From positions 3,713-67,712 of the IMG/VR virus record IMGVR_UViG_3300037722_000699: a stretch of DNA of 64,000 bases, one strand, 5' to 3'. Position 1 is the stretch's first letter, and each line of letters begins with the position of its first letter. Position numbers and translations under genes: made by a program. This document shows positions 2,893 through 35,578 of this stretch, piece after piece. Under the pieces are notes generated by a model. It saw only the letters and a list, made by a program, of their open reading frames with translations, was not told the DNA's origin and did not search any database. Source of the stretch: a virus.

Positions 2893-5589
2893 CTATTCGG
2901 TATCTTGGGATAGCGCGCTAGCGCCCACGCTCCCGAAAAACGCGGCAGCACGTCGGCTTTGAATGTCTGTGTTGGCAAGCTTGATCAAATCGCGCAAATC
3001 ATCCGGATTCAAAATGGTCCGCACCAGCACGCGATTGGCGGCGCCTTGACGGACTCGGTTGAAGGCTGTCAGACCGCGCCCCGCCATGGTGAAGATGCCG
3101 ACGTACCACCTCGCCAGCCCATTGAGAGTTCGATTCCAAAGCGACGTGGCCGACGTATTCGGGAAGCGGGTTTCCTTGGAAGCCAGCCGTAGGGCATTGT
3201 TGAGTTGCGTCAGATCCTTGACGTATTGCTCGCCAAACAACTCTTTCAGCACCAGCGAATGCCCGCCTTCTCCGCCTTTACCAAACAGGAAATCCTCCAG
3301 CTTGGCATGGTTCAACTGCCGCTCACCGTGGGCGAACTGCCCCATGACACGATCGGCAATGACCTTTCTTGCCTCAGCCTGCACGCCGCGCAACACGTCA
3401 GGCGCCTTCTCGCGCCTCAGAATGCCGACCAACTCTCGCGCCTTTGCAGGATTTTTGGGGTCCAGGACCAGGGAGAGCAGCTTGCCGGGGCTGTTTATGT
3501 CGGCAAGCTCGGCCTCAAAGGTCTTGTTGATCGCACCCAGCGCCCGCTTGCGCGCTTCCTCGCGGGCCTGCAGGACACGCTCGGCATTGCCGGGCCGGCG
3601 AAGCAGGCGCATTTCGTCCTTGGTGAAGAACAGCTCCATTTGCTTGCCGCGGTCGCGCATGAACTGCTCGTGCTTGCGCAGATTGACCCGGCCTTCATCC
3701 GCAATCCCGACCGTCCGCTTATAGAAGTTGACCAGCGATTCCCTCATGGCCTGCATGGCCTGAGGATCATTCCGAATCAGCGCATGGACTTCTTCCGCCC
3801 CGCGCCTACCGCCGGTTATGATGGACGTGCGGAACACGTTCTCGTCCGCGATCTGGAAATTGGCATTCCGGCCGCCACTGCGCTCCATCAGCTTGCCGAC
3901 CGTACCTTCGTCCAGCCGGGCCTTTTCCTGGGCGTAGCGACGAATGAACTGGTCGTACTGTTCGCGCAATGGATTCGCCTGGCTGCTCTCGCGCAAGTCC
4001 TTTTCCAACGCGCGAGCAAGGCGCCCATAGGCAGCGGGGGCCGGTTCTTCGGTTGATAGCCCTTTCGAGGAAATGCGTTGCGCGCGCTTCAGGGCCGAGA
4101 TCGCTTCCCATGTCTCGGCGAATGTAAACCGGGCCTGAGGATCATAGAGCCGGTTTAGGATGCCAAGCTCTTCGTCAGTGAATTCCGGGCCAACAAGCCC
4201 ACGCTGCGGCTGTTGCAACCTTGGGAACAGCGCCCGCCTTACTGTCGCATCGATATCGCGCACAACAGTCTGCAGGTTGCTGTTCTTGATGAATGGCGCG
4301 CCACCGGCAAGATCGTCCAGCGCCCTGGCCCCTTCCCGCGCCCAATCGGTAAAGGCCTGCTGTTCGCTGTCTCCAACCTCTCTCAGAAGCGGCCCCAAAT
4401 CCTCATAGGGGCGGTCTTTGAGTGACGTGACGGCACGGTCAAGTTCCGCTTCGGCTAGGCTCACCCCTTGATCTGCGCGACGCGTGCTGCGGTCCAGCGC
4501 ACCCTGGGCGACTTCCCGGACCCGGCCCTGTACTTGCTCGCCAGTCAGGCGGCTCTGATAGCCGCTGTTGATGACCTTGTTGAACTCTCGCAGGGCAGCG
4601 CTTTGCTCCTTTTCCCATGCTCCAAAGACCGCGCGCCACTCGGGAGAGCGCCGCAACATGTCTTCTATGGCCATGATATCTTCGTCGCCACTGGCTTGGC
4701 CGAGACTGAATTTCAGTCTCTCAGCACCAATGCGGGCGTTGATCGCGTCGGCCAATTCCTGGGCGGTTTCCAGTTCAGGCCCCAGCGCCTTCAGCGTCTC
4801 AGACGGAATGACCCGGCCCTGGACAATGCGAATGACCGCCTGTCCGATCCTGGTCAGAGCCGCCGCACCCACGCCGCCAGCAGCAGAAATGCCACCTTCC
4901 TTCAGGGCGCTCTCAATCATCTGCTCTTCGGTGATGTTCTCATTGATGCCAAGGTCTCGGCCAAGAGAGAGACGGAGTATCTCGCCCGCGAAGGCCCCCA
5001 TGGCACTCGCCGCGACGACCTTTGTCGGGCTCTTCGCCGCGATGGCCACCAAGGCCCCCATGGCCATTTCCGTGCCAACCACCATGGCGGGGCCGCCAAG
5101 CGTCTGCAGCCCTTCCAGGGTTGCCCCGGGAGGCGTCACCAGGGCATAGCGGCCCGTGTCCTCGTCCAGGTATTCCAGCACGCCAGTCTCAGGGCCTATC
5201 CTGACCGGTATGTCGCGCCCAAGCTGGTTGCGGATTGATCTTTCATAAGCCAGCCGCCGGTTTTCATCATCGTAAGCCAGCGAGGCCAGGAAGTGCCCGG
5301 CCGGGGCTGCCTTGTCGGAGACCACGCCCGCGTCGGCCGCCTTCTTGACGATCTCAGGCAGCTTGGGCGTGATGTCCAGTTCCATGGGGCCGGCCGGGTC
5401 AGTGATCGGCGACACGGGCTCTGGCGGCCTTGCCAGGGGGCTTACGTCAAGCGCGGGCGGGCCTGTTTCCTCGGGCGGGCTCTGGCGGCGCTGCAGCTCT
5501 TCGCCCAAAACCTTCTGCCAGTCGGCCGACTCTGCCGGCGCAGAATCCCGACGCCGCAGCTCTTCTTGAAGAATGCTTTCAACACCCAT
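2893..5589 (-). CDS. Large internal virion / DNA ejection protein (P22 gp16-like position)
   Basis: 898 aa, helical and Ala/Arg/Glu-rich, with central Gly/Ala hydrophobic segments. Last of the genes following the tail nozzle and fibre. Positional inference. Confidence 0.7.
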   Translation of the reverse strand: MGVESILQEELRRRDSAPAESADWQKVLGEELQRRQSPPEETGPPALDVSPLARPPEPVSPITDPAGPMELDITPKLPEIVKKAADAGVVSDKAAPAGHFLASLAYDDENRRLAYERSIRNQLGRDIPVRIGPETGVLEYLDEDTGRYALVTPPGATLEGLQTLGGPAMVVGTEMAMGALVAIAAKSPTKVVAASAMGAFAGEILRLSLGRDLGINENITEEQMIESALKEGGISAAGGVGAAALTRIGQAVIRIVQGRVIPSETLKALGPELETAQELADAINARIGAERLKFSLGQASGDEDIMAIEDMLRRSPEWRAVFGAWEKEQSAALREFNKVINSGYQSRLTGEQVQGRVREVAQGALDRSTRRADQGVSLAEAELDRAVTSLKDRPYEDLGPLLREVGDSEQQAFTDWAREGARALDDLAGGAPFIKNSNLQTVVRDIDATVRRALFPRLQQPQRGLVGPEFTDEELGILNRLYDPQARFTFAETWEAISALKRAQRISSKGLSTEEPAPAAYGRLARALEKDLRESSQANPLREQYDQFIRRYAQEKARLDEGTVGKLMERSGGRNANFQIADENVFRTSIITGGRRGAEEVHALIRNDPQAMQAMRESLVNFYKRTVGIADEGRVNLRKHEQFMRDRGKQMELFFTKDEMRLLRRPGNAERVLQAREEARKRALGAINKTFEAELADINSPGKLLSLVLDPKNPAKARELVGILRREKAPDVLRGVQAEARKVIADRVMGQFAHGERQLNHAKLEDFLFGKGGEGGHSLVLKELFGEQYVKDLTQLNNALRLASKETRFPNTSATSLWNRTLNGLARWYVGIFTMAGRGLTAFNRVRQGAANRVLVRTILNPDDLRDLIKLANTDIQSRRAAAFFGSVGASALSQDTE

Positions 5590-5595
5590 CGTTTG

Positions 5596-7404
5596 TCACC
5601 CGCGGATTCCCAGATTCGGGACAGCAGGAGTCGTCACGGGAACGCCCGTCGGCTTGGCCCCGGAGCCGCTAAGCGCTCTCTTGATTTCCTCATCCGACAT
5701 ACGCGCGGCAGCCTTCTCCATCTGTTCTTTGCTCATACCCTCGAACAGCAACGAGGGCGGGCGCGGCCCTATATCGGTCTGCACACTGTCCCGGCGCGTT
5801 TCGTCCATGCGCAGCGCCACGCTGTCGAGAACCTTGATGAAGGATTCCGGGTTGCCGGTCGAAGAGCCGATGGTACGAATTGCCGCCTGGATATCCTTAT
5901 CAGACAGGCGCGCGCCTTCCCGAGAGCGGGCCAGAGCAAACGCAAGATCAGTCACCATGCTCTGCATGACGGCGTTCTCGATGCCGATCTCGCGGAAGGT
6001 CTCCAGGTAGGCAGTCGGATCGGTCGAGGCCTCGACTTCAATCCCGGCCAGCTTCGCGAGTCCGATCGCATTGCCGCGCAAATCGGTTGCGAGCTTGGCC
6101 AGGGCACCCGGAGCAGACAGCAGTTCCGGCTTTCCCTCGACCTGGGTTTGCAAACTGCGAATGATGCGCAGCCCGCCCTTGGTGGACTTTTCCTGATCCT
6201 GCAGTTCCTCAAGGCGTTCCTGGCGCGGGATCGAATAGCCCTTCTCCTGGAACTCTCCGACCGTCATTTCGTCCAGGCCGGCAAGACGGCGCACGGCGTT
6301 CGGCACCGGCTGATCCGCTTCGAACTCGCCACGGGCCTCCAGCTTCTTGCGCTCGCCTTCCGCCAAGTCTTCCGGTGTGCGGCCGACAATCGGGCGGGAC
6401 ACTTCCGCCACCTTGTTGGTGCGCAGATTCTTCTGCACCAGCACGCCGTTTTCGTTTTCATAGGGCGCGCTGAATTTGTCAGTCGCCTGATCAAGCACCT
6501 TGATTTCGCCCGTGGTGATATTCTTCTGCACCAGATTGCCGTTCACGTCCCTGGTGGGCGGCCCGAACTTGTCCGCTCCAGCGGCCTTCATGGCCGCTTC
6601 CTGCTGTATCTCGGGCGTCGTGATGCCATGGTCGAGCAGGATATTCGGGTTGCGTGTCAGGGTGCCCAGCTCTGAATTGGACAGGCGCAATTCCTCAGGT
6701 ATCACACTGCCGTTCAGTTGGCGCAACTCACCAAGGCTGACGGCTTTATCCTTCAGGAAGCTATCCGGGATTTTGCCCGCCAACTCGCCCATGACAGTCG
6801 CAAGCTTGCTCTGCACGACAGGCAGATTGCGCTCATCCGTGCTGGAGATCATGCGCTCCATGAAGTTTTCATTAGCCATCAGGTCGCCGATCTTATCCGG
6901 GTCGCCGTTTGTCAACTGTGCCACGATGGCCAGGTTTTCCTCATCGCCGAACACGTCGAGAAACTGCCGCAGATCGAATTGCTGGCCCTGCGTACCCAGC
7001 AGGATTTCGGAAAAGCCGGGGATCACGGCATCGAACTGCGCCCCGAACTGCTTGGCGAAATTCTCGCGCTGATCATCGGGGAGGCGGTTCATGACCTTCG
7101 TCGCCGTATCGAGCGCCTCGAAGCCCAGCAGCGAAGCCTTCATTTCATCGATCCGCTGCGACCGGGCAATCTGCCGTTCCTGGATCAGCCGGTCGCTCGG
7201 CAATTCCTGCCCACGCGCACCGGCCGCGAAGTTCCCCAGCACGACTCCGATGGCCCTCAGGGGGTTTTCCTCGAACAGCGGCGCGGGCTGGGCCGCAGGC
7301 TTGGACCGCGAGATCACGTTGCCCGCCGTCGTGGCCGTGTCAGTCTCACGCAAGGCATTCGTGGCCGGACGAGCCGCCAGGCCCAGGCTGAGAGGGGCTA
7401 CCAT
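5596..7404 (-). CDS. Internal virion / DNA ejection protein (gp20-like position)
   Basis: 602 aa, between the gp7-like and gp16-like genes; contains an internal tandem ~30-aa repeat. Confidence 0.65.
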   Translation of the reverse strand: MVAPLSLGLAARPATNALRETDTATTAGNVISRSKPAAQPAPLFEENPLRAIGVVLGNFAAGARGQELPSDRLIQERQIARSQRIDEMKASLLGFEALDTATKVMNRLPDDQRENFAKQFGAQFDAVIPGFSEILLGTQGQQFDLRQFLDVFGDEENLAIVAQLTNGDPDKIGDLMANENFMERMISSTDERNLPVVQSKLATVMGELAGKIPDSFLKDKAVSLGELRQLNGSVIPEELRLSNSELGTLTRNPNILLDHGITTPEIQQEAAMKAAGADKFGPPTRDVNGNLVQKNITTGEIKVLDQATDKFSAPYENENGVLVQKNLRTNKVAEVSRPIVGRTPEDLAEGERKKLEARGEFEADQPVPNAVRRLAGLDEMTVGEFQEKGYSIPRQERLEELQDQEKSTKGGLRIIRSLQTQVEGKPELLSAPGALAKLATDLRGNAIGLAKLAGIEVEASTDPTAYLETFREIGIENAVMQSMVTDLAFALARSREGARLSDKDIQAAIRTIGSSTGNPESFIKVLDSVALRMDETRRDSVQTDIGPRPPSLLFEGMSKEQMEKAAARMSDEEIKRALSGSGAKPTGVPVTTPAVPNLGIRG

Positions 7405-7458
7405 GATAGGAAAATCTTCCCTATTGCGTTCGTGGGCGGGACAACCGAAGTTTGCACC

Positions 7459-7959
7459 ATGCGTGTCCTTATCGCGTTAACCATTGCGCTGGCCGTGCTG
7501 GGCGGCGGCTGCGCCTCGGCGGTCGCAGACGAAGGTGCCAGCCTCGACAGGCTGATCGATGAGGAACTGCAACGCCGTGGCGAGGGTCGGTCGACCTTGG
7601 ATATTTTGAAAGAGGTCGAAAGTGAGGCGCAGGCGGCTGCAGACGAAGACGCCAGCGTCGACTGGAGACGGCTGCTCGAAGAGGAACTGCAGCGGCGCGG
7701 CACAGAAAAGATAGAATCCTGGGTAGGGCACCCAGCGGACGATTTGGTATTTGCCCTAGGACCACCAGCGCAAGATGTAGCTCTCAGCGACGGCAGGCGG
7801 GCGATGACCTATCAACATAGTCGCTTGCACGAAGGGACAAGCTACTACTGCACAGTGATCTTCCGAAGCACCGCAGCCGGGACCATTTCCAGCGCCAATG
7901 TTGCCATCGGCAATTTTCGTGGATGCGACCGGCTCTTGGGCTCAATCCCGGCACCCTGA
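7459..7959 (+). CDS. Lipoprotein antisense to the virion operon; candidate superinfection-exclusion protein
   Basis: ATG 7459, signal peptide MRVLIALTIALAVLGGG-C, and a C-terminal domain (SWVGHPADDLVFALGPP...YYCTVIF...GCD) typical of small lipoproteins. Carries two EELQRR motifs. Confidence 0.75.
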   Translation: MRVLIALTIALAVLGGGCASAVADEGASLDRLIDEELQRRGEGRSTLDILKEVESEAQAAADEDASVDWRRLLEEELQRRGTEKIESWVGHPADDLVFALGPPAQDVALSDGRRAMTYQHSRLHEGTSYYCTVIFRSTAAGTISSANVAIGNFRGCDRLLGSIPAP

Positions 7960-7962
7960 TCC

Positions 7963-8211
7963 ATGCGCCTGATACTCATATTGTCCATGACCCTGATGCT
8001 AGGCGGCTGCTGGGTCACCAGCACAGAAGCAATCTACGGCGGGCTGGCCCTTGGGCTCGGCTGGATCCTTGTCGACGAGGCAATCGAACACGGCGATCCG
8101 GACGATGTCAGCCCGGAAAGCTCACACCGGCTGCCTTCAGAGCCCGCGAGCACCCTGCGCTCCGAGAGCCTGGCCCGACCGCACCCCCGTACCCGCAGTG
8201 CTGCGCCCTAG
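7963..8211 (+). CDS. Small lipoprotein
   Basis: Lipobox LGGC after a hydrophobic stretch, then a second hydrophobic segment; starts 3 nt after the previous gene ends. Confidence 0.6.
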   Translation: MRLILILSMTLMLGGCWVTSTEAIYGGLALGLGWILVDEAIEHGDPDDVSPESSHRLPSEPASTLRSESLARPHPRTRSAAP

Positions 8212-8835
8212 ATCGCGCGACAGATCGCCGAGACGAGTCACGCTTCTAAACTCTTTCTTGTTCTGGATATTAGGCGCAATCGTACCGGCGCCGACGACGC
8301 CTGGCGTCTCGCCAAAGAAATTGCGCATGATCATTGAAACCACTTTCATGCCCGGCACCGCCCCGATACCCTTCATTATGGTGTAGTCGGAATCCTTAAA
8401 ACCCAATGTTACCCTGGGGCCAGACGCCCCTGGCCCTGACGCCACCGGAGACCCCGGCCCCACGACAGGCCCCTTGCCGCCACCCCTGGCCGTCGAGAGC
8501 CCAAAGGACGCCCGCCCGGCAGCCCGGTTGAAGGCCGCGAGCCGAGTGCTGGCCTGTGGATTCGGCTTGTCACTGAAGGCCCCGGTACGGCCGAAATCCG
8601 CCGTCGTGAAAAAGGCCCTCATCATGTTGCGCGCATAGGCGGCGCCCGGCCCTGGCTGGCTGGTATCCACGACAGGCAGCCCGGTATGCGGGTTGACGAG
8701 TCCCTGTGGCCCCCCGCCACGCTCACGGGCATCCCGCCTGGCATTGTCCTCAATGGCCTGGAGGGGTATCAGGCCCTCTGCGGGGCGCTGCTGGTGACCT
8801 AGGCCGGCTTCCTTGATATCTGAGGCTGATGGCAT
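8137..8835 (-). CDS. Putative internal virion protein
   Basis: GLVNPHTGLP matches the NPxTGL motif of podovirus internal proteins; Gly-rich; coupled to the gp7-like gene. Confidence 0.55.
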   Translation of the reverse strand: MPSASDIKEAGLGHQQRPAEGLIPLQAIEDNARRDARERGGGPQGLVNPHTGLPVVDTSQPGPGAAYARNMMRAFFTTADFGRTGAFSDKPNPQASTRLAAFNRAAGRASFGLSTARGGGKGPVVGPGSPVASGPGASGPRVTLGFKDSDYTIMKGIGAVPGMKVVSMIMRNFFGETPGVVGAGTIAPNIQNKKEFRSVTRLGDLSRDLGRSTAGTGVRSGQALGAQGARGL

Positions 8836-9755
8836 CAGGAGCCCGAGCCCACACCTATGGCTCCCAGGCCCTCCAGCACGGCACCGCCGGCCGCGAGACC
8901 CTGCAGGCCCAGGCTGGCCGGGCTCGGATTGGAGACCTGTGTCTGGCTCCGCGTCCCCGCCAGGCTGCTGATTGTTGCAGGCAGGCCGGCATTGACCCCG
9001 GTCGCCAGGCCCAGCCGCAGTGAGCCCTCGGTCTGGCCGAGGCGGAGGCGGTTCTGGAACGCCTGGTCACGCAGCGTGGCAGCGAAGTCCTCTCGGGCGG
9101 CCAGCAGTTGCTCCTGGTTCTGCGCCAGCCCCAGCGTGACGCGCTTCTCCTCCAGGGGCAGTGTCAGTTCGGTCAGGGCCGCCTGGGAACGGAGCGAGCT
9201 GGAGAGCTGCCCCTTCTGCCGCACCCCCTCGGCCGCGATCTTGCCGCCACGGTCAAGAATCGGGCTGTCGCTGGGCCTCAGGCCCAGGCTCGGGGCCAGT
9301 TCCTCTTTCAGGGTCTCGAAGGCCTGCAACTGCGCCCGGTCGATATCGGCATTGCCGGCCTCCAGGGCGCCCTCGGTCGCGGCCTTGATGAGCGCCTTCT
9401 GCTCCGTGGTCGCGCCACTGCCGGAAAGGATCTGATCAATGGTGAATTGTGCCAGCTCGTCGCGGCCAGCCTCGAAGCCCTTGGTCCTCTCGGCCTGGCG
9501 TACCGACTCAGCCCCGAGCGCGTCCAGTGCAGTCTCGCCGCCCTTGACGCCTTCCTCGATAAAGCCGCTCGCCTCTTGGATAGCCTTAAGCTGCTCTTCG
9601 CCAATCGAGCCCTGAAGCTTGGTAAGCCGCTTCTCTTCCGCGCTCGGCTGCGATGGCTCGACAACGGTCGTCTCGCTGCCCACGTCGAAGCGGACGCCCC
9701 AGCCGAAAACACCGCCATCACGCGGCTTGCCCGGAATCCACATCACAGCCGCCAT
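8835..9755 (-). CDS. DNA transfer/ejection protein (P22 gp7-like)
   Basis: GSETTVVEPSQP near the N-terminus, Gln/Ala-rich helical middle, Gly-rich hydrophobic C-terminus; directly follows the GNAT gene. Confidence 0.6.
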   Translation of the reverse strand: MAAVMWIPGKPRDGGVFGWGVRFDVGSETTVVEPSQPSAEEKRLTKLQGSIGEEQLKAIQEASGFIEEGVKGGETALDALGAESVRQAERTKGFEAGRDELAQFTIDQILSGSGATTEQKALIKAATEGALEAGNADIDRAQLQAFETLKEELAPSLGLRPSDSPILDRGGKIAAEGVRQKGQLSSSLRSQAALTELTLPLEEKRVTLGLAQNQEQLLAAREDFAATLRDQAFQNRLRLGQTEGSLRLGLATGVNAGLPATISSLAGTRSQTQVSNPSPASLGLQGLAAGGAVLEGLGAIGVGSGS

Positions 9756-10174
9756 GCCATTATGTTGCCCTGGCTCATCCTGGTACAGCCCCGCTTCTTC
9801 AACAGCCTGTTCATCCGCTTGTTCTTGAACGCCACCATGGCCGTCGCGAATTGCGACCCGCCAGCGCGCAATGTGCTCGTCCCAGAAATGAGCAGCATGC
9901 GCGCGGTCTTGCTCTTCAGGTAGTCCGTCAGTTCGGCAGAGACAGCAAGCATCTCAAGCCGGCCAAACGGTTTCGCAGGCGCAACCTGGATACAGCCCAC
10001 CACTTCGCCATCCTGTACGGCAACGAGCCAATAGGGAGCGATATCGGACCATTCGACATCCTCGACTTCAAACCCGGCGTCCCGCACAAGCTGGCCAATG
10101 GCTTCACCCTGAGCGTTCGATGCTATCAAAACTTCCGTTCTTGGCGTCTTCGATTTCTCGTCTGGTCGTGGCAT
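9743..10174 (-). CDS. GNAT-fold protein (P22 gp14 / T7 gp13-like position)
   Basis: WLVAVQDGEVVGCIQV...RLEMLAVS...MNRLLKKRG GNAT pattern; immediately upstream of the ejection genes. Confidence 0.65.
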   Translation of the reverse strand: MPRPDEKSKTPRTEVLIASNAQGEAIGQLVRDAGFEVEDVEWSDIAPYWLVAVQDGEVVGCIQVAPAKPFGRLEMLAVSAELTDYLKSKTARMLLISGTSTLRAGGSQFATAMVAFKNKRMNRLLKKRGCTRMSQGNIMAWRL

Positions 10175-10421
10175 CGATCACACCCTTGGTCTCCAAGGCG
10201 TCGAGCAGGATGGCCATCCGCGATGGCTTGGCCTTCTCGGCAGTGAGAAAAACCCGGTACTCCTGTTCCCAGGCGTCGAGATTCTCTGGCGTGGCCTGTT
10301 CGGGCGCCCCATCCGGCCAGCGCAGCAGCGTATCGCCCGTAAAGGCAATGCCGCGCATTTCCTTGCCGTTCTCGGTCCACTGCTTGGATTTCCAGCAGGC
10401 CGCTTGTGCGCGAAAACTCAT
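10104..10421 (-). CDS. Hypothetical tail-fibre-associated protein
   Basis: ATG 10421 overlaps the tail fibre stop. Confidence 0.55.
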   Translation of the reverse strand: MSFRAQAACWKSKQWTENGKEMRGIAFTGDTLLRWPDGAPEQATPENLDAWEQEYRVFLTAEKAKPSRMAILLDALETKGVIDATTRREIEDAKNGSFDSIERSG

Positions 10422-11680
10422 GAGGTCAGAACCTCCATGGCCACCAGCGCACTCGCGTATCTGCCGTCGTTGACCGTATCGGCGTCGAGGCCGCCACGCC
10501 CCACCACGCCGGTCCCGCCATCGCCGGTGCGCATCTGCAGCTTGTAGGTATAGGTCCCGGCCGTGCCGGGCGCATCGGTCCAAACGCCGCCCATACTATT
10601 GATGCCGTGTTCATTGCCGGCAATGGAGCCTTCGCTGCCGAAAGTCGCCCGCGTCCGGGCGCTCGATGTATCGCCGATCGCTATGGCGGTCGAGTCGCGG
10701 ATCAGCCTTACGAAGGCCACTTCCCCGTTCGTGGGGTTGGAGAAAACGCCGTGCGACATCAGGGCCACCTTGTTCGCATCGGCCCCCGTAGTGATGGAAA
10801 CGGACAAGCCCGTAATGTCCGTGAAACTCGTGTCCGTCGTCGTGAAAGTGTCGGTCTTCGTCGCATAGCGCACCTGCAGAACGGCACTGGACATGAACGA
10901 CAGAACGCCGGCCCCGTCCGTGGCGAGAACCTGATTGGCCGAGCCGTCGCTGTCGGGGAATGCCAGCTCATCATCGCCCAGCTTGACCGCTCCGGCCCCC
11001 TTGCCTTTCAGCAGCAGGGCAACATCCGCGTCAGTACCACCCGGCTGGATCAGCGGGCTCTGGCTCGTATTGGCCGGCGTGATCTCGATATAGTTGACCG
11101 CGCTCGCGTTGTCGGAAGTGGAGATGAAATCGAGCGCCGTATTGCCTGCCGTGTTTGCCAGCGGAGAATTGTAGACAAGAACGCCGTCGCCCTTGGCGGT
11201 AAAGCCAAGGTTGATGTCCGTGTCATCGCCCGTGGCAGAAATCGTCGGCGTGTCGGAAGTCGCCGCCGCCGTGATCGTGACTTCGTTCACGGCATCGGAC
11301 GTGCCCGTGGCGATCAGGATATCGTCGCCTTCGGCAGTCTGAAGTTTGACGGTGCCGGCCGCCTGCGGTCTCAGACCGAGGTTGACATTCGCATCCGTGC
11401 CGGCCGCGAGAAGATGGGGTGTGTCGGACGTGGCAGCAGCGACAAAGTCAATGCCGTTGACGGGACTCGTTACTGTGGCGTGGTAGCGGAATAGGTCTTG
11501 CCCGCCCAGCTTGAAATCAATCCGATCGTCCGTGTCCGCCGTGATCGAGGTATCGGCATCGGCGTCCAGGACCAGCTCAAAGCCGTTTAGGTCGACAAGC
11601 TTTGTCGCAGGGAAGACCAGATCGACGCCGTTGTTGATGATCTGCGAAAAGGATGAGTTCAGGTCCGCGGCGCTTAACAC
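10418..11680 (-). CDS. Tail fibre protein
   Basis: N-terminal (F)LAGEVLSAADLN adaptor-binding motif, three internal repeats of about 50 aa, and a beta-sandwich-like C-terminal domain (YTYKLQ). True start is probably slightly upstream of 11680. Confidence 0.75.
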   Translation of the reverse strand: MLSAADLNSSFSQIINNGVDLVFPATKLVDLNGFELVLDADADTSITADTDDRIDFKLGGQDLFRYHATVTSPVNGIDFVAAATSDTPHLLAAGTDANVNLGLRPQAAGTVKLQTAEGDDILIATGTSDAVNEVTITAAATSDTPTISATGDDTDINLGFTAKGDGVLVYNSPLANTAGNTALDFISTSDNASAVNYIEITPANTSQSPLIQPGGTDADVALLLKGKGAGAVKLGDDELAFPDSDGSANQVLATDGAGVLSFMSSAVLQVRYATKTDTFTTTDTSFTDITGLSVSITTGADANKVALMSHGVFSNPTNGEVAFVRLIRDSTAIAIGDTSSARTRATFGSEGSIAGNEHGINSMGGVWTDAPGTAGTYTYKLQMRTGDGGTGVVGRGGLDADTVNDGRYASALVAMEVLTS

Positions 11681-11752
11681 CTCTCCCGCGAGGAAGACCT
11701 TGAATGGACTTATCGAGATGGGACACCTGCCCGGCCATGCGCCGCAAATACA

Positions 11753-13351
11753 TCAGGCATTTTCCGTACTCCAAGCGCCGCCCTCTAGGGCTACCGAGAA
11801 ACTGTGAACCTCGACATCCTCGTAGTTGCCGGCGTTGAGAATTTCGTACTGGATTGAACGGAAGCTTGCAGCGTCCTCCAGGGTAAACCAGCTATTCACA
11901 AAGGAACCGCCGCCCAAAACGGAAGTCCCGAGCGTGAACTGATTGACCGTGGCTGGCGCCAGAACGTCGCCGCTTGCTGTCGTGACCTCCCTGGTCTGCT
12001 GCGCGTTCGCGTCACGCTGATAGCCGAAGGTGATTGCACCAATGTTGCGCGGCACAACGCCGAGTCCGCATTCCCGGACGGTCTTTTCCTCAATCGGTAT
12101 GGAGTAATTGAGAAACGGCGTTTTCACCTGGTACGTGATGGCCGTGTCGCCGTCTATCGAGCGATCCGTCTGCTGCATCTTGCGTACAAACCCGTCGTTG
12201 CCGCCCGCCATGACGATGCGCCGATTGTTGGCGCCGCTGTCTATCACACTGGCGAGACAGCCGCAGACATCCGAGAAGCCCGGCCATTCGCTCCAGCGCG
12301 GCGGATCAAAGCGATGGTCCATAACGAGAATCTGATTGTTGTCCGTCGCGCCGTCGACAGGGACAGCGAACAAGACAACCTCCAGGGTGCTTGAAGGCGC
12401 GGCCCAGGCATGCTTAAGCCGCGAGAAATTCAGCCGCCGGCCAAGATAGTTCGTGTTGATCGGCCGCGACAGGGACGCCTCGTTGAAATCGCCGAACGCT
12501 GCGGTCGCTTTCAGGCTGTGGATCGATCCGTCGCTCCACATAAAGCCGATATCGTCATGATAGCGAAACAGCGTGTTCTGCCCGACCGCGCCCAGGCCTT
12601 CAATGAAGGTCGTGCGCGCAAAGGCGTCGTCACCAGTGGGGGCAGAGCCCGTGATGCGGTGAATGGAGCCCTTGTACGGCCCCTTGAACACCCACAGATC
12701 GTTCTTGTGGCTGATGATGGCCGTGATACGGTCGCCGTCATCCGGGTCGATATCAATGGAACCAGAGCCGGAGCCCACCCAATCTTCCGGGTCCAGGCTC
12801 ACACAATAGTTGAGCCGGGATGGAGTCGAGCCCACGCCCGCCGCCCACATGCGGTTCTTGTGCGTCGCCGCGAAAGAGAAGTTGGGCGGCGTCCCCGCGA
12901 GGTTCTGTGCCGTCGATCCGTCCCATGACTTCGGCACGTCGACATCGTTTGTCAAAACCAGCAGATCATTCAGCACGGCGTAGCTCGGCACGGCATCGGC
13001 CGTCAGGCCGGTGAACAGGTCCGTGAAAGCCCCGTCCGCGTCGTCTTTCTTGGCCTTGGTCCCTACATGAATGACCCTGTGCTGCGTCGAGGCCCCGCCG
13101 GTCCCGGACAGCCAGAAATCGAACAAGCCCTTGATAGCGGCGCCGCTCTCCAACTCAGTATCGTGCAGCTTGATCGTGCCGGGGGCCTTCCTGGGGCTGC
13201 CGTCCAACTCATAGACGATATTGCGCGCCGTCTCCAGGAACGGCAGGCGCACCACATTAGCACCATCCGGGGAAACGTCCGACGTTGGGCCGAAATCCGT
13301 CGCCCAGCCGCCGTCAAATACATGTCGGATCAGAATGCGTTTTGATGTCAT
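11753..13351 (-). CDS. Tail nozzle / DNA stabilisation protein (P22 gp10 / T7 gp12-like beta-propeller)
   Basis: 532 aa, beta-rich, with HKNRMW and RLNYC...DPEDW blade-like motifs; follows the adaptor gene. Confidence 0.75.
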   Translation of the reverse strand: MTSKRILIRHVFDGGWATDFGPTSDVSPDGANVVRLPFLETARNIVYELDGSPRKAPGTIKLHDTELESGAAIKGLFDFWLSGTGGASTQHRVIHVGTKAKKDDADGAFTDLFTGLTADAVPSYAVLNDLLVLTNDVDVPKSWDGSTAQNLAGTPPNFSFAATHKNRMWAAGVGSTPSRLNYCVSLDPEDWVGSGSGSIDIDPDDGDRITAIISHKNDLWVFKGPYKGSIHRITGSAPTGDDAFARTTFIEGLGAVGQNTLFRYHDDIGFMWSDGSIHSLKATAAFGDFNEASLSRPINTNYLGRRLNFSRLKHAWAAPSSTLEVVLFAVPVDGATDNNQILVMDHRFDPPRWSEWPGFSDVCGCLASVIDSGANNRRIVMAGGNDGFVRKMQQTDRSIDGDTAITYQVKTPFLNYSIPIEEKTVRECGLGVVPRNIGAITFGYQRDANAQQTREVTTASGDVLAPATVNQFTLGTSVLGGGSFVNSWFTLEDAASFRSIQYEILNAGNYEDVEVHSFSVALEGGAWSTENA

Positions 13352-14364
13352 CGCAACTGATCGAACCGTGAGCCAAGCACATAGCGCGAAGAACCGCCGC
13401 TATAGGGCCGCTTGGCTGATCTGACATAAGGCCCGACTCTGGGGGCGATCTGCGGGCGCTTGCCGCCGATCTCGGTATCAGCCGTGATCCGCAGCACAAC
13501 ATCTGTGTACTGCTGCTGCACTTCGGCAGAGCGCGTGTCATTCTTCTTGTCGCGATACCAGTGCCAGAGAGCATGAAACAGGACCGCATGCCGGTATCCA
13601 AGCGGCACAGTTGGCTCATCGTCATCGGCCGAGAGCTGCGTCTGCTCCGTGCCATCACTCGCCACCGCCAGCTTGTTGGTCACGAAGCTGTAGGGAATGA
13701 GTGAGAAGTCTGCAGGGGGAGGATGGAACTGCACGCGACGAACCAAAGCCGTGGAGCCGGAAAAGCCTGAATTGATGATCGATGCTGCCACAGGGTCGCC
13801 GGTTGCACTGGTGCGCGGCACGCGGCGGCGGAATTCCGTGGTCGAGATCAGATCGATGTTGCCGCGCGTATCGAAGCGCTGCAGGTCAAAGGGCCTCAGG
13901 AAATCCGCATGGAGATCGTATTCGTCCTCGAAGTAGACATAGGACGCCTCCGTTGCGTCCTCCCCGACATAGGGCGTCGCCAGCGTGATCTGGGTATCGC
14001 TGTCAACCGAGGAAATCTTGTAGACCGGCTCCGTCCCGTTCAGCACCAGCTTACCGGTTGACCGCGCGTTCTTGACCGAGAAATCGTTGTTGGTATCCCA
14101 TAGCGTGTCGGTGCCGGTGACAGTGGTCGAGCCTCTTGTGACCGCCACCTCTCCAGTCGTGTAGCGCTGCTGCGTCCTGAGAACAGTGCTGCGCTCGCAC
14201 CAATGGAACTTCTCGCCGAAGCCAAGGTGCATGTCGACCAGACCGACGTTGATGTATCTTTTCGCTTGGCTCTCCGTCGCCGTTACGCCCGTCTGCTCGT
14301 GCACGGCATTGAGCAAGCCGGAGTAAAGATCGGAGAAGTCTGTGTATTGTGTGGTGGAACTCAA
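13348..14364 (-). CDS. Head-tail adaptor (P22 gp4 / T7 gp11-like) with inserted beta domain
   Basis: Helical N-terminus (AKRYINVGL), C-terminal PLGYRHAVLFHALW, and inserted YTTGEVAVTRGSTTVTG domain. Confidence 0.65.
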   Translation of the reverse strand: MSSTTQYTDFSDLYSGLLNAVHEQTGVTATESQAKRYINVGLVDMHLGFGEKFHWCERSTVLRTQQRYTTGEVAVTRGSTTVTGTDTLWDTNNDFSVKNARSTGKLVLNGTEPVYKISSVDSDTQITLATPYVGEDATEASYVYFEDEYDLHADFLRPFDLQRFDTRGNIDLISTTEFRRRVPRTSATGDPVAASIINSGFSGSTALVRRVQFHPPPADFSLIPYSFVTNKLAVASDGTEQTQLSADDDEPTVPLGYRHAVLFHALWHWYRDKKNDTRSAEVQQQYTDVVLRITADTEIGGKRPQIAPRVGPYVRSAKRPYSGGSSRYVLGSRFDQLR

Positions 14365-14579
14365 CAGAATCTCCGCCTGTTACGGATTAGAGCCTTTATT
14401 TGCCGCTGTCTTCGTGTGCCAGGAATGGCGGGCTCTTCTTCCGGAGTATCGCCAAGCCCGCTATAGAGCCAAGCAAAGCCCAGAAGATCGTCAGCCGTCA
14501 GAGAGGCGCCGACAATCGGCTGAAGCGAGCGCCATGGCTGCCCAAGATTGACGGCCGTCAGAAGGCTGGAGGCGTTCAC
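14361..14579 (-). CDS. Small hypothetical protein
   Basis: 4-nt overlaps with both neighbours. Confidence 0.55.
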   Translation of the reverse strand: MNASSLLTAVNLGQPWRSLQPIVGASLTADDLLGFAWLYSGLGDTPEEEPAIPGTRRQRQIKALIRNRRRFC

Positions 14580-15451
14580 GACGACGAGGTCATTTCGCCG
14601 ATATCGGCGGAATCGCTGGTGGCGCTTAGCGACGCCGTGTGGGCAATTGTCGTCGCGTCATCATTGTAGATGCGCAGGATGCTTGGCGTCTGGACCTTGC
14701 GGTTGCGCCACGCCTTGTAGAGAAAGCTGATCTTGTCCGCCAGCGAGATTGTGGCCCCCGGCGCCCCGGCCCCAGGTTCGGCGAAGGTGTCGACGTTCAG
14801 AACGTCCAGCACCTCTGTGTTGACTTCGGCGGCCGAGAGATCGTTCAATGCCTCTATGGTGCTCACGACCTCCCCGACCACCGAGCCCGCGACAGCCGTA
14901 CCGGCGGTTTCATTGCTGTCCGTCGTGAAGGCGCTGATGATGGTCTGAACGGCAACCACCCCAGCGGTGGAGGTGTTGATATCGGCCACGTTGACATCAA
15001 GTTGTATCGCCCCACCGGCATAGCCGGTGCCGTCATAGAAGTTCACAAAGTTGTCGAAGGTATCGCTGGTCCCGAATGCCGTTTCGATATTGTCGGCCGT
15101 CTCCTGGCTGCCGGAAATCCGCACGGCATCGACCGGCGCCAAGACCTGGAAATGATCGTGCGCATTGACCGTCACGCCCCCCACGACGGTTTCCTTGTAG
15201 ACGACATAATCCTTGCCGACCTCAAAGCCGTCCGAGGAGTTGAGCGTGATTTGCTCGCTGTAGAGACCAGCCGTATTGGCGCTATCCAAAAGAGCCAGTG
15301 ATCCGTTTACCAGCGTGTCGCTGGTCTCGTCTTCGTAAATGCGGTAAGTCGGCGCCGTCGATGTATCGGTCGCGGCACCCGTCGATGGATCGCGCGTTGT
15401 CGAATAGAAGGTCAACGTTGCGCCGACATTTCTTGAACCAAGATAGCTCAT
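14576..15451 (-). CDS. Putative virion structural protein
   Basis: 291 aa, Thr/Ala/Asp-rich, coupled in the late operon. Confidence 0.6.
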   Translation of the reverse strand: MSYLGSRNVGATLTFYSTTRDPSTGAATDTSTAPTYRIYEDETSDTLVNGSLALLDSANTAGLYSEQITLNSSDGFEVGKDYVVYKETVVGGVTVNAHDHFQVLAPVDAVRISGSQETADNIETAFGTSDTFDNFVNFYDGTGYAGGAIQLDVNVADINTSTAGVVAVQTIISAFTTDSNETAGTAVAGSVVGEVVSTIEALNDLSAAEVNTEVLDVLNVDTFAEPGAGAPGATISLADKISFLYKAWRNRKVQTPSILRIYNDDATTIAHTASLSATSDSADIGEMTSSS

Positions 15452-16182
15452 GTGATTCCTCTTGGTCCTGCCCAGTCTGGGTCCATGGGACCGCCATCAT
15501 CCATGCCGGACCAGATTATGCCGGCCACAGCACCCGCCGGCCGCACGACAAGCGTGTTCGCGACCCAGCTTTCACTTGAAGCCAGCGTGAACGCGTCTGG
15601 GTTATCGGTCGCCCCCGTCAGTTCCCGGAAGGCCGCGCCGCACGAGCAGCCGCTGTTCGTCCCGCCCCCGCTCACAACGTTAGCGAGATCGACGTAGTTC
15701 GTCGGCGGGTCCGTGAAGCTCACGTCGTCATCCGCCGCCACGCCGACAGCAATGAACAGGTTATCCTCCGCTCCCCAGGAAGCCGTGAGAGAGGGCGGAT
15801 CGGGCGCTGTCCCGGCCTGTACGGCAGCCGTCCCAACCTCAAGGCCCGCCAGATCCTTGAACCAAGACGCCGCAGTGACGCGGATCGCAATCGCAGTGCC
15901 CGTCGTGGCGCTGTCCACTACCGCCGTGGCAGTACCGCCGTCCTCCGACCCGTCCGCAATTTTGGCATAGACGGCCATGTTGGCCAGGTTGTCACGGTTC
16001 ACCTGGGCCATGATCTCAGTGTAGCCACTGGGGGGCGTGGCTATGTTGTTAGTACTGGCGCCCAGCCAGCTATAGACGACAGCCAGCAGGTCGTTGGCAT
16101 CAACCGTGGCAGGCAGATCAGCCGCCTGGTTGACCGTCGCGGACCCGATAGCGGTGGTTGTGGTCGAATAGGTCCAGGGCAT
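15448..16182 (-). CDS. Putative virion structural beta-sandwich protein
   Basis: 244 aa, Thr/Ala/Gly-rich, coupled in the late operon. Confidence 0.6.
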   Translation of the reverse strand: MPWTYSTTTTAIGSATVNQAADLPATVDANDLLAVVYSWLGASTNNIATPPSGYTEIMAQVNRDNLANMAVYAKIADGSEDGGTATAVVDSATTGTAIAIRVTAASWFKDLAGLEVGTAAVQAGTAPDPPSLTASWGAEDNLFIAVGVAADDDVSFTDPPTNYVDLANVVSGGGTNSGCSCGAAFRELTGATDNPDAFTLASSESWVANTLVVRPAGAVAGIIWSGMDDGGPMDPDWAGPRGIT

Positions 16183-21259: not shown

Positions 21260-21464
21260 TATGGCCTCCCATCTTGCTATGATGGGCAGCCCCATTGAAC
21301 CGCTTCGGCGGCTTGCCGGGCAGTTCTTCGGACATCTGCTCGAACTGGTGCTTGCGCATGTCGGCGAACCGCTTGGCACGCTGCACGCGGGCGGGGTCCT
21401 TCTCGATCTCCTTGGCCCGGATCAGGACACTGAGATCGGATTCCGCTTCATAGTCGTCGTTCAT
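21252..21464 (-). CDS. Small capsid-adjacent protein (AESDL...KDPAR family)
   Basis: TGATG coupling to the capsid stop; an interrupted paralogue lies at 32559..32870. Confidence 0.65.
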   Translation of the reverse strand: MNDDYEAESDLSVLIRAKEIEKDPARVQRAKRFADMRKHQFEQMSEELPGKPPKRFNGAAHHSKMGGHNA

Positions 21465-22381
21465 CACGACACCAGCGCGCCGAGAACGAAGCGCCAGTTG
21501 CGGTGAGCATTCGCGTAACGCATGTATGCACGCCACTTGGCGACCAGGGTATCCAGGTCTTCCGCGAAGGCGAATTCGAGCGGGATGCGGTCGATCCAGA
21601 ACAGGCTGCGGCGGCGCGCGTTGCTGTCCATCAGGAACCAGTTGGACCCGTCGAGGTATTCCCACTCGACCAGCTTATAGGCGCCCTGGTGGACGTTGGG
21701 GTTGTTGTCGCCCGTGTCGAGCTTGCCCTGGCTGTTGATGATCTCCCACGCGGTCTCATAGAGACCAACGGGGTACATCAGCTCGTTGGGCATGACAGAG
21801 ATACGGCCGCCACGATCATTGCGGAAGCCCTTCATCTGGATACGGGCCGCCGCGAACGCCGTGGCTGACAGTGCGGACGTAGACAGGTTGTCGAAGCCGC
21901 TCGCCGTCGATGCCCCGGAAGTCGTGGTGTGCGAAGCACTGCACATGGCCACGCCTTCGGTGTTGTTGTAGAAATAGCTGTCGACCGAAAAGCCGTTGTT
22001 GAAGGGACGAGCCGCGTGCTTCTGGCGCGTCCGGTTCCCGGCATTGGCCAAGTTGGCCGGGCGCTGATCCATGATGTGATACTGGTCGTCGTCAAAGAGC
22101 TTGCGCCGGACCTGAAAGCCCGATGCGAACTCAATAGGCGTCGCCGTCGTATCATAGCCCTGGCTCAGCGAATCGTAGTCGACCGAACCGTCGAACTCCG
22201 AGAAGTCGCCGAAGTCGCCGACTTCCGACCAGCGCATGTCTTCGCGGCCGTTCGTCGGCGGTGTGGTGTAAAGCCTCGGAACCATGTCGGGCAGTTCGTC
22301 GTACTCGGCATGGAAGATCATCTGGAAACGAGGGTCCAGGAGATCGCCAAAGCTTTCGGATGTTGCGGGATTTACTGGCAT
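21464..22381 (-). CDS. Major capsid protein (HK97 fold, Mu gpT-like)
   Basis: 305 aa; FGDLLDP, YDSLSQGY, FDDDQY and WFLMDS...KWRAYMRY motifs; follows the scaffold and decoration genes. Confidence 0.85.
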   Translation of the reverse strand: MPVNPATSESFGDLLDPRFQMIFHAEYDELPDMVPRLYTTPPTNGREDMRWSEVGDFGDFSEFDGSVDYDSLSQGYDTTATPIEFASGFQVRRKLFDDDQYHIMDQRPANLANAGNRTRQKHAARPFNNGFSVDSYFYNNTEGVAMCSASHTTTSGASTASGFDNLSTSALSATAFAAARIQMKGFRNDRGGRISVMPNELMYPVGLYETAWEIINSQGKLDTGDNNPNVHQGAYKLVEWEYLDGSNWFLMDSNARRRSLFWIDRIPLEFAFAEDLDTLVAKWRAYMRYANAHRNWRFVLGALVS

Positions 22382-24220: not shown

Positions 24221-24652
24221 CTAGTTCTGACCACCGCCGTTTAGGCCTCGGTCAGACGGCCGCTCGGAGGAAAGCGGCAATTCCGGGAGACGGGCCAGCA
24301 CGCCCCGGGCTTCCTCGCCCGAGCGCTTCAGGTCCGCCGGTATCTCGATAACGGCGCGCAGGATGTTGGCGCGCTCACGACAGAGCAAAGCCAACAGCCG
24401 GGCCTGCTCGACATCGGGGCGCGACAGCGCCGTGTCGTAAAGACGTGACAAACAGGCCTCAGCGGCACGCTCGGTCTCTTCAAGCGCTGCCTGCATGAGC
24501 CTGAGGAACAAGTCCCAATTCGGATCGCCGGTCAGTTGCTCGGCCGCTACTTCGGCCTGCTCCAGCCATTGCAGGACCGGCTTCTGCGCCTGCTGACGTT
24601 CCTGAGCCCTGCGTTCAGACAGGGCCGTATAGTCGCCACGATCTATCGTCAC
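24221..24652 (-). CDS. Post-portal hypothetical protein
   Basis: Overlaps the portal stop; helical. Confidence 0.6.
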   Translation of the reverse strand: MTIDRGDYTALSERRAQERQQAQKPVLQWLEQAEVAAEQLTGDPNWDLFLRLMQAALEETERAAEACLSRLYDTALSRPDVEQARLLALLCRERANILRAVIEIPADLKRSGEEARGVLARLPELPLSSERPSDRGLNGGGQN

Positions 24653-28693: not shown

Positions 28694-30352
28694 CTAATAT
28701 GCGCCCTTTCGTGTCCCGGCCCGCCGAATAACCGGCGCGCCACCATGCAGAAACGTGAAGCTCGGCTCGTAGTTCATCAGGTACTTGAGCAGCGTCGGGT
28801 AGTCGTCGTTCTTGGCCCGTGGCTTCTGCTTCAGATCCTTTTCCAGCGAGGCCCGATGCTCATCCCAGGTGTAGCGCTTCATCTGCGCTATGGTGGTCTG
28901 GCACCGGGGATGCACATGAAGACGCGGGCGATAGAGCCGGTAATCGGGCTTCAGGAACTCATTGATGCGGGAACGCCCCGGATCACCGTCATCGGCCAGG
29001 TCGCAGCGCAGCCCGACGTGCTCGAATTCGTCCTGCCAGGTCACGCCTCTTTGTGAGGAAGCAGGCGAGCGCGCCATGTTCGGATCGATCAGCCGAACCG
29101 TCGTCTGCAAGCCGTAGCGCGCCTCGGTCTCGAATGCCGCGTCGCGCACCTCGGATGGATCACCATCAAGCGCTCCCTCGGCCGCTACCCAGATATCATC
29201 CGAGGGATCGACCAGGCCCCAGAGCCACATGTGCGGCTTTCTCGGGTGCGGATCGATCAGCCAGACCGCCGGCCAGGGCTCGATATCGAATTCGCAGACG
29301 TGGTTGAAGGTCACCACCTCCGTGGAACCACACTGCGCACAGCCTTCAGGCGTTGTATAAACGGCCTTCTTGCAGTTGAAGCACCAGTCCTGGCTCGTGT
29401 CGGTAAAGAGTGGGTGTATCCGGTTCGAGAAGCGGATCGGCACACCCTTGGAGCGGACTTCCCTGGTCGCGTCATCGAAGGTCGCCAGCTTGGCGATCGT
29501 GGCCTCTCTATTGAGGTGCGGGTTGTCCAGCGTGTGCAGCTCGAACCAGTCGAAGCTGGGCAGCTTGTTTGGTCCCGGTCTGCCCTTCTCGTAAACCTCG
29601 TCGTAAATCCAGTCGACCGGGATCGCGGGATCGTCCGGCCAGGTCATGACCAGGAACATCCGGCCATCCACGTCCATGACGCGCGCCATATTCTCGCGCC
29701 AGATCGCGTAGCTGGGCGGCTCGTCGTGGATTACAATGTCGTAAGAACCAGACGCGAAGTGCGACGGGTCTTGATCATAGCTCATAAAGCCCGCGGACGA
29801 TTGCCCAAGAACATGCCCGGGGTTGTCCGGATCGTGACAATCAAAAGTCAGGGTCCGCAGCTTCTCCGACCAGGACTTGTCCCACTGGCCGTTTATGAGA
29901 CAGCCGCGCGGCACCCAGCCCCAATGGCCCTGATTGCCCCCAGGCTCGCTCACGCCGGACCACTGCCACCATTGGAACTTCGGCAGAATCGCGCCGTGCA
30001 GCGTGGCGGTCAGGGACTCGACGCACATGCGGATGCGGATCGGTCCCTGGAACTTCTCGCGGCACTCCGCTTCGATCGATTCCGGGAATATGCCCGTCGC
30101 GAGAGCTAGTGCCTCTACTATGGCGCCAGTGGTTTTCCCGCTACGATTTCCACCACCAATTCCGATAACCTTGGCCTTGCTGCAGTGCATCGCCAGGGCG
30201 CGTTCGGAATTCGGCTCGTAGTAGAGAAGCTGATTCTCCTGCCGGTGCCGGCGCTGCTCGGCCAGCACGGCCGCCAGCGTGGCCTTGAACTGAGTGTCGT
30301 CAAGCCCCCGCAGGCTGTCGCGCGAGAGCTTCGCCAGATCAACCGGGGGCAT
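28694..30352 (-). CDS. terL: Terminase large subunit
   Basis: Walker A GGNRSGKT, Walker B VIHDE, TWP coupling motif, and a RuvC-like nuclease domain (IDPH...NDDYPT). Confidence 0.93.
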   Translation of the reverse strand: MPPVDLAKLSRDSLRGLDDTQFKATLAAVLAEQRRHRQENQLLYYEPNSERALAMHCSKAKVIGIGGGNRSGKTTGAIVEALALATGIFPESIEAECREKFQGPIRIRMCVESLTATLHGAILPKFQWWQWSGVSEPGGNQGHWGWVPRGCLINGQWDKSWSEKLRTLTFDCHDPDNPGHVLGQSSAGFMSYDQDPSHFASGSYDIVIHDEPPSYAIWRENMARVMDVDGRMFLVMTWPDDPAIPVDWIYDEVYEKGRPGPNKLPSFDWFELHTLDNPHLNREATIAKLATFDDATREVRSKGVPIRFSNRIHPLFTDTSQDWCFNCKKAVYTTPEGCAQCGSTEVVTFNHVCEFDIEPWPAVWLIDPHPRKPHMWLWGLVDPSDDIWVAAEGALDGDPSEVRDAAFETEARYGLQTTVRLIDPNMARSPASSQRGVTWQDEFEHVGLRCDLADDGDPGRSRINEFLKPDYRLYRPRLHVHPRCQTTIAQMKRYTWDEHRASLEKDLKQKPRAKNDDYPTLLKYLMNYEPSFTFLHGGAPVIRRAGTRKGAY

Positions 30353-33814: not shown

Positions 33815-34004
33815 GGTCAGCCTCCAGGCATGCCAACGGCCCGCGCGGTGGCGGGTTTCGGGCTGGTTCGGGAAGTCGCGGCACAAAAGCTGCCGCAGCG
33901 TGGCCCGTGTGGGATTTTGGGCCTACGCGAGGCCAACTTGGGCCTGCGCTTGGGATTATAAGCCGGTCTTACAGCCATGTGCAAGTGTTTATTCCCATTC
34001 TCAG

Positions 34005-34206
34005 ACGCCATGCTGCCGGGTCATAAACCCTTTGGCGGTCGTATTCCTAACGGCACCAGCAGCATGGCGTTCGGTCGCGAGAGAGCCAGGGTCACACCTG
34101 GGCTGGCTTTCGATACTCCGTAGGCACCCAGCCCTCTCGCTTTCGGTAGCACAGCAGCGGGGTCAAAGCCGCTTTGGCTTTCAGGCTTTTGGTGGCACCC
34201 GCTGCT
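34005..34206 (-). ncRNA. TIGR-like stem-loop guide array, 3 units (natively just 3' of the tas gene)
   Basis: Units at 34153-34206, 34077-34140 and 34005-34070. Each is stem-GGTGCC(A/T/G)-N9-YGA(A/C)(A/C)GCCA-N9-TGACCC-stem. Confidence 0.85.
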
Positions 34207-35550: not shown

Positions 35551-35578
35551 TTCAACCTCACATCAATGGAGGTAAAAG

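Follow-up and report, generated by a model that had tools for sequence, protein, structure and literature searches.

Leader motifs of two allelic forms of a putative ejection protein in the stalk of a phage lipoprotein

Why should a small phage lipoprotein carry the N-terminal motif of a large virion-module protein that is encoded next to it on the other strand? The question is raised by a locus within a 64,000-nucleotide (nt) stretch of IMG/VR virus record IMGVR_UViG_3300037722_000699 (positions 3,713 to 67,712; in the following called the window), which makes up most of this 67,792-bp record. A first-pass annotation, made from the letters of the window, had noticed a two-part motif shared between an 898-amino-acid (aa) protein (P0002) and a 166-aa lipoprotein (P0001) and had proposed mimicry of the ejection-protein leader. 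Judged by sequence, the lipoprotein has a stalk with leader motifs that belong to two alleles of the 898-aa protein, one of them found in the window and the other in a sibling phage. The elements compared are the following.

2893-5589, minus strand: 898-aa large virion-module protein (P0002), a putative ejection or internal virion protein
5548-5577, minus strand: leader copy A1, SILQEELRRR, residues 5-14 of P0002
5485-5523, minus strand: leader copy A2, DWQKVLGEELQRR, residues 23-35 of P0002
7459-7959, plus strand: 166-aa lipoprotein open reading frame (P0001)
7540-7581, plus strand: stalk motif 1, A-type, SLDRLIDEELQRRG, residues 28-41 of P0001
7588-7635, plus strand: stalk motif 2, B-type, RSTLDILKEVESEAQA, residues 44-59 of P0001, a copy of the second leader motif of the sibling protein P0157
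7654-7701, plus strand: stalk motif 3, A-type, SVDWRRLLEEELQRRG, residues 66-81 of P0001

The 898-aa protein starts with MGVESILQEELRRR, followed after seven residues by ADWQKVLGEELQRR. The common element EEL[QR]RR occurs exactly four times in a six-frame translation of the whole 67,792-bp contig, twice at this N-terminus and twice in the lipoprotein stalk, and in no other protein; BLASTP aligned P0001 and P0002 with E = 5e-6. The likeness thus goes beyond chance. Stalk motif 3 and leader copy A2 are identical in 9/13 residues and 25/39 nt, with different codons used for four of the identical residues. Each A-type pair shows four synonymous codon differences, and the two A-type copies within the stalk form a significant internal repeat (p = 0.0005). 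Positions and sequences of the shared motif were reproduced, as was the earlier observation that residues had been kept while codons diverged. The description as an antisense lipoprotein holds for the opposite strand but not for a gene, because P0001 lies in a 559-nt gap between minus-strand genes.

The source of stalk motif 2 lies in the sibling phage, which is represented by two contigs of Joint Genome Institute (JGI) sample 3300048611, one of 34 kb (L002, the same record as L013) and one of 3.4 kb (L008). L002 is 95-100% identical to window positions 5766-15523, two places excepted, and is without an ejection-type gene. L008 codes for a 901-aa protein (P0157) belonging to the same 90% cluster as P0002, and from codon 42 onward (window 5475 downwards) its DNA is 96.3% identical to the window. 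Neither the first 41 codons nor the terminal part of the upstream gene resembles the window; here, the sibling leader consists of a different tandem motif, DPLAILKRIEGEA and SPLDILKEVESEA (..LAILKRIEGEA.. / ..LDILKEVESEA..). With 41 unlike codons at the start of a gene that is otherwise 96.3% identical, the leader must have been exchanged as a cassette between near-identical phages. This cassette reaches across the junction of two genes.

5476-5700, minus strand: swapped junction cassette, comprising the first 41 codons of the 898-aa gene and approximately the last 25 codons of the 602-aa gene
5596-7404, minus strand: 602-aa virion-module protein (P0003), directly upstream of the 898-aa gene

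The upper boundary of the cassette is uncertain and lies between 5680 and 5766; its sibling counterpart is L008 1-213. The C-terminal tails of the 602-aa protein diverge past ..EKAA(A/R)RMS, and the part of the cassette within this gene reads ..RMSDEEIKRALSGSG.. versus ..RMSPADRRRLIENLEQKSGG... No match to the 602-aa protein was found in Pfam, PHROGs, PDB or NCBIfam. The sibling assembly ends exactly at the cassette, which suggests the presence of several alleles in sample 3300048611. The two allelic types of leader evidently circulate together. A third leader copy on the C-terminal tail of the upstream protein had looked plausible for four loci (L001, L003, L004 and L005) and was not supported when matched and mismatched tail-leader pairs of 10-11 loci were compared (p = 0.42 for 28-residue tails and p = 0.095 for 60-residue tails).

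Stalk motif 2 matches the second leader copy of the sibling in 14/16 residues and 41/48 nt (85%). By blastn, L008 162-210 aligned to window 7587-7635 with 86% identity over 49 nt (E = 1e-9). Both genes are matched in sense orientation, so that in the genome the copy runs opposite to the ejection-type gene. The 11-residue core LDILKEVESEA differs by four synonymous changes and no amino-acid change. Because the homology is seen at the DNA level, we consider this motif a real copy rather than a product of convergence. Searching the six-frame translation of the contig with the sibling leader gave a single match, to stalk motif 2 (E = 4e-8). Of the 124 family N-termini with which the stalk was compared, the sibling leader scored highest (46) and the leader of its own phage second (37), compared to a mean of 19.8 (standard deviation 3.5, maximum 29) for the other 122. 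The existence of the copies, their specificity and their origin by copying are directly supported by these comparisons, and the mimicry first proposed for one leader extends to two allelic leaders, with the motif at residues 44-59 as a third element of the stalk.

The sibling contig was also the only relative in IMG/VR, whether searched by protein, by alignment or by two exact DNA patterns, and scans of genomes and metagenomes for relatives yielded distant loci only. In the 10 kb that could be compared, window and sibling are otherwise 95-100% identical but diverge at three spots, namely the leader cassette, the mature part of the lipoprotein and a stretch in the gene at 14576-15451.

Is the 898-aa protein an ejection protein? 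Its gene closes a minus-strand virion block of the short-tailed-phage type, for which the following genes were located in the window, together with an integrase.

28694-30352, minus strand: terminase gene
24649-26997, minus strand: portal gene
21464-22381, minus strand: capsid gene
13348-14364 and 11753-13351, minus strand: tail genes
60479-61768: integrase

The tail genes are followed by a run of unannotated genes that ends with the 602-aa and then the 898-aa gene, the last and largest of those downstream of the terminase, portal, capsid and tail genes, in agreement with the run of large genes after the tail genes by which podovirus ejection proteins are recognized. An exhaustive search returned 329 homologs of P0002, and the protein shares 27% identity with gp41 of Pelagibacter phage HTVC106P. 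The AlphaFold2 (AF2) model, with a predicted local distance difference test (pLDDT) score of 81, is all-helical, and there is a single hydrophobic segment at residues 166-186. Structural neighbors of this model in BFVD had significant E-values at low template modeling (TM) scores and were large proteins of uncultured phages, a few of them named Injection protein or bearing LT_GEWL or M15B. Against the solved ejection proteins (T7 gp14-16 and P22 gp7/20/16), phmmer found no match in the PDB, and Foldseek found no PDB entry at E ≤ 0.001. The label "ejection protein" is therefore putative, resting on gene order, size, predicted helical fold, hydrophobic segment and weak BFVD neighbors.

The leader is a variable element throughout this family. 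The bodies of the family members align well and the first 40-80 residues do not; many members open with two, sometimes three, copies of a lineage-specific short peptide. Using a window score against shuffles for the 124 full-length members, we found a significant tandem N-terminal repeat (p ≤ 0.01) in 31/124 members, compared to 0/124 internal control segments. Examples are PAGFxP, EQQSILDVAR and NPFAKYGP, each present twice, as well as ALPDNLVP, PFAHLEP and D(A/I)(L/I)DAFL; tandem leaders of PPGF and FDD type also occur. The two-part motif is thus a general but hypervariable feature of the family. In the AF2 model of P0002, both leader copies appear as short low-confidence helices on a disordered tail of approximately residues 1-78, and the leader has the character of a short linear motif that is displayed in two copies.

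A search with the leader alone detected no other leader of A-type. Leaders of the form ..(E/D)(L/M)x(R/K)RG(L/I/G).., mostly in tandem, were seen in distant branches (P0013, P0023, P0024, P0025, P0058, P0072 and P0110); given their resemblance to the A-type motif, some classes of leader may have arisen more than once or may spread widely by exchange. Behind the variable leader, a motif x(T/V)SP(I/L) was found in 42/124 family members versus 5/124 in a control segment, and the corresponding copy in P0002 covers residues 43-52 (window 5434-5463, minus strand); it could be a docking or cleavage site. A SAP/HeH-like reading of EELQRRG..LDILKEV was dismissed, as the stalk and seven leaders gave no match to Pfam SAP, HeH or Rho_N at E ≤ 10.

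We next describe the lipoprotein itself, which is encoded between the 232-aa and 602-aa virion-module genes, both on the minus strand. The 559-nt gap hosts its gene and a second small lipoprotein gene.

7459-7512, plus strand: signal peptide and lipobox (..AVLGGGC, Cys18) of P0001, with DNA nearly identical in the sibling
7513-7713, plus strand: stalk (linker) of P0001 with three predicted helices
7714-7959, plus strand: beta-rich C-terminal domain of P0001, stop codon included
7963-8211, plus strand: second small lipoprotein or membrane gene (P0004, 82 aa), co-oriented with P0001 and conserved in the sibling

The only hydrophobic segment of P0001 is N-terminal and ends in the lipobox; further membrane segments are lacking. 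In a single-sequence AF2 prediction (pLDDT 44.5, too poor for a fold search), three helices coincide with the three stalk motifs and are followed by a beta-rich domain. Searches of Pfam, PHROGs and PADLOC at permissive thresholds, and of NCBIfam and PDB sequences, gave no match. A BamE/OsmE/BLIP-like resemblance of the C-terminal domain is a weak lead, coming from BamE-bearing clusters with low scores among the Atlas feature and structure neighbors; BamE/OsmE (SmpA_OmlA, PF04355) was not matched in Pfam at E ≤ 0.1. The C-terminal domain contains the sequence GPPAQDV (window 7759-7779, plus strand; GPPAQDM in the stalk-less allele described below), which resembles GPPALDV of P0002 (window 5443-5463, minus strand), just ahead of the conserved SPL. 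Both stand in the same order relative to EELQRR in the two proteins, and all third codon positions differ. This likeness may be due to chance or represent a further element of mimicry.

In the neighboring P0004, a lipobox (..LMLGGC) is accompanied by a hydrophobic stretch rich in glycine, and P0004 is 98-100% identical in the sibling; the 3′ end of its gene overlaps the 3′ end of the minus-strand 232-aa open reading frame by 75 nt. Family searches with P0004, as well as with P0002 and P0003 (Pfam, PHROGs, NCBIfam, PADLOC and PDB sequences), gave nothing meaningful. An outer-membrane spanin subunit was considered for P0001 and not supported: the neighbors are virion-module genes, P0004 has a lipobox where an inner-membrane spanin would have an N-terminal anchor and a coiled coil, and no PHROG lysis matches were obtained.

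Among 5.8 billion clustered proteins, the only homolog of P0001 is P0005 on the sibling contig, so that the comparison of lipoproteins covers one related phage in the databases. P0005 consists of a P0001-type signal peptide (lipobox ..LVAGC) and the C-terminal domain, with four residues in place of the ~65 stalk residues of P0001. The first-pass annotation had named as evidence against mimicry that homologous lipoproteins carry the motif regardless of the cognate ejection protein; this sole homolog has no stalk. The C-terminal domains share 72% identity, and their synonymous (dS) and nonsynonymous (dN) divergences are 1.08 and 0.175, a ratio of 0.16. For the next gene, P0004, the values are dS = 0.05 and dN = 0. 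This contrast implies that the stalk difference did not arise by recent insertion into an otherwise identical gene; rather, recombination has introduced an old alternative allele that spans the entire mature part, and purifying selection has maintained it. We accordingly reject positive selection on this domain. The substitution ratio directly supports P0001 as a genuine gene that is under purifying selection.

How can these observations be explained? We favor the reading, at a probability of about 0.5, that P0001 is an exported, lipid-anchored, polyvalent mimic that would block the function of the ejection proteins of incoming related phages and thereby serve superinfection exclusion. The integrase suggests that the phage is probably temperate, and P0001, whose gene lies on the opposite strand within the virion block, could like other morons be expressed by the prophage. 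The 166-aa gene product would be exported and anchored by its lipid. According to the sorting rule of E. coli, alanine at position +2 after the lipid-modified cysteine directs a lipoprotein to the outer membrane; P0001 has alanine at this position and would therefore probably reside in the outer membrane, facing the periplasm. Its three-helix stalk would display leader peptides, two of its own type and one of the sibling type. When a related phage injects and its ejection proteins cross the periplasm, the stalk would compete with their leaders, either by occupying whatever the leaders must bind or by pairing with the leaders and tethering them to the membrane. The DNA-entry conduit would fail either way, and exclusion by mimicry would cover two allelic types. 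Export, expression in lysogens, competition and exclusion are the steps that we infer. A complex prediction of the leader (P0002 residues 1-62) with the stalk (P0001 residues 19-88), run without controls, scored 0.00, which speaks neither for nor against such pairing.

Several points weigh against the mimic. The stalk-bearing allele was read from one contig; in a second assembly (SRR12682375), the flanking genes are likewise separated by 559 nt, but the gene calls show nothing between them. No sigma-70-like promoter was found near the P0001 gene, although the promoter type of the host may differ. The A-type copies share only 5-9 of 10-13 residues. At nine other family-member loci, most of them short, no second leader-bearing gene was found. 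The 898-aa protein is treated as an ejected protein without a match in PDB, Pfam or PHROG, and the sibling lipoprotein (on L002) and ejection-type gene (on L008) are presumed to belong to one genome. Finally, since a stalk-less allele exists, the lipoprotein must have some role without the motifs.

More tentatively, the decoy may be part of a wider scheme, which we regard as possible and rather doubtful. In this scheme, the hypervariable tandem leader would be a specificity code for the assembly of the DNA-entry conduit, and lysogens would be defended by an exported scaffold that collects their own and rival codes through recombination with the 5′ ends of ejection genes. Such a polyvalent, updatable decoy would represent an undescribed class of exclusion, and the scheme, if true, would explain the fast evolution of the ends of ejection proteins.

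Among the alternatives, the one that survives best, unlikely as we consider it, is a docking peptide shared without competition. The stalk would then only position the lipoprotein's own domain, which might act in receptor masking, envelope remodeling or lysis control. The existence of a conserved stalk-less allele fits this idea, as does the second conserved lipoprotein gene next door, and the recurrence of ..EL.(R/K)RG.. leaders in the distant members P0013, P0023, P0024 and P0025 suggests that this motif class may bind something common. However, two phages that are nearly identical differ completely in their leaders, both of which occur in the stalk; this is hard to square with a single docking site, and two proteins sharing one docking site would compete anyway.

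Less credible still is a by-product of recombination, in which the 5′ end of the ejection gene is a hot spot and fragments of it entered, in frame, a tolerant linker encoded by a nearby gene and serve no function there. The leader cassette and the mature lipoprotein are indeed both swapped blocks in a mosaic genome, and the single contig with the long allele, together with the missing gene call in the second assembly, is compatible with such an accident. Yet it would have had to deliver three in-frame copies of two allelic types, inverted relative to the source gene. The motif residues were kept while their codons diverged (no amino-acid versus four synonymous changes in the B core, and four synonymous changes in each A-type pair), and the internal repeat in the stalk likewise argues against accidental insertion.

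A lipoprotein of a known exclusion or lysis type, either a receptor blocker like T5 Llp and phi80 Cor or part of an outer-membrane spanin, with the stalk as a spacer and the likeness to the leader irrelevant, appears improbable: P0001 is a small phage lipoprotein with a small beta domain and the weak BamE/OsmE/BLIP-like leads, but the family and PDB searches gave no match, the gene lies outside any lysis cassette and has no partner gene whose product combines a transmembrane segment with a coiled coil, and the specific double match of the stalk would be left unexplained.

Beyond the leader and the lipoprotein, further features of the contig were recorded. The minus-strand virion run is interrupted by the two plus-strand genes for the 166-aa lipoprotein and the 82-aa lipobox protein, whereas the corresponding genes of HTVC106P form an uninterrupted run on the same strand. 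Directly downstream of the 898-aa gene, a trypsin-like serine peptidase with an N-terminal hydrophobic segment (PF13365, E = 1e-14) is encoded at 1901-2776 on the minus strand; a peptidase gene is also present on the SRR12682375 contig. The third divergent spot, window 14700-15080, is 43-76% identical to the sibling against a background of 95-100%. It lies in an unannotated virion-module gene (14576-15451, minus strand) that adjoins a Laminin_G_3-bearing gene in the sibling, and this block may be a receptor-binding region. The region 34000-41000 is lower in G+C and contains a GmrSD_N plus HNH gene (37627-39255).

If the decoy proves true, several consequences follow. A decoy with the target's own leader would provide a simple recognition rule for exclusion, the rapid turnover of ejection-protein termini would be an arms race between related phages, and sequence alone would suffice to predict the specificity of exclusion. 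The tandem N-terminal motif found across the family is, independent of the decoy idea, a new functional element; the family is large and unannotated and comprises podovirus virion proteins with at least 329 cluster representatives.

Exclusion at the step of DNA entry is known from SieA, Ltp, Imm/Sp and HK97 gp15. Spackle and Imm of the lytic myovirus T4 are periplasmic or membrane exclusion proteins acting at injection, with Spackle binding a virion protein, the gp5 lysozyme; they are binders or inhibitors and are not known to be mimics. Ltp of Streptococcus phage TP-J34 targets the tape measure protein, which likewise is among the proteins that exit the virion first. It is prophage-encoded and lipid-anchored, faces the surface or periplasm side and blocks DNA injection (PMC3952083). 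P0001 (..AVLGGGC) and P0005 (..LVAGC) resemble this type in their lipoprotein signal peptide. Ltp differs in its Gram-positive host, its repeat-domain fold and the absence of known target mimicry, and no Pfam, PHROG or PADLOC family corresponding to its repeat domains was found in P0001 at permissive thresholds. T5 Llp (PMC9586334) and phi80 Cor are likewise small phage lipoproteins serving exclusion, but they bind and inactivate the receptor FhuA and are not known to contain a copy of a virion-protein motif.

The nearest known system to P0001 is SieA of phage P22. In accordance with the first-pass annotation, the prophage gene sieA stands beside the ejection genes, its exact place being between genes 16 and 9, and SieA keeps related phages from delivering their DNA (Leavitt et al. 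2024, PMC10883804). SieA targets the ejection proteins gp16 and gp20, to which escape mutations map (PMC10883804), and so provides a precedent for exclusion proteins that are encoded beside ejection genes and target ejection proteins. Few virion genes are as variable as those for ejection proteins, and how very diverse ejection proteins are recognized was left unexplained by the authors of the SieA study (PMC10883804). A review of exclusion from 2024 mentions neither decoys nor ejection-protein mimicry (PMC11436027), and we found no published description of exported mimics of ejection-protein leaders. Like sieA, the P0001 gene lies beside putative ejection genes of an integrase-bearing short-tailed phage; homology between the two proteins was not detected. 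SieA is a multi-pass inner-membrane protein, whereas P0001 is a lipoprotein with a single N-terminal hydrophobic segment, and SieA has no reported likeness to its targets, whereas the stalk of P0001 copies the leader of its presumed target.

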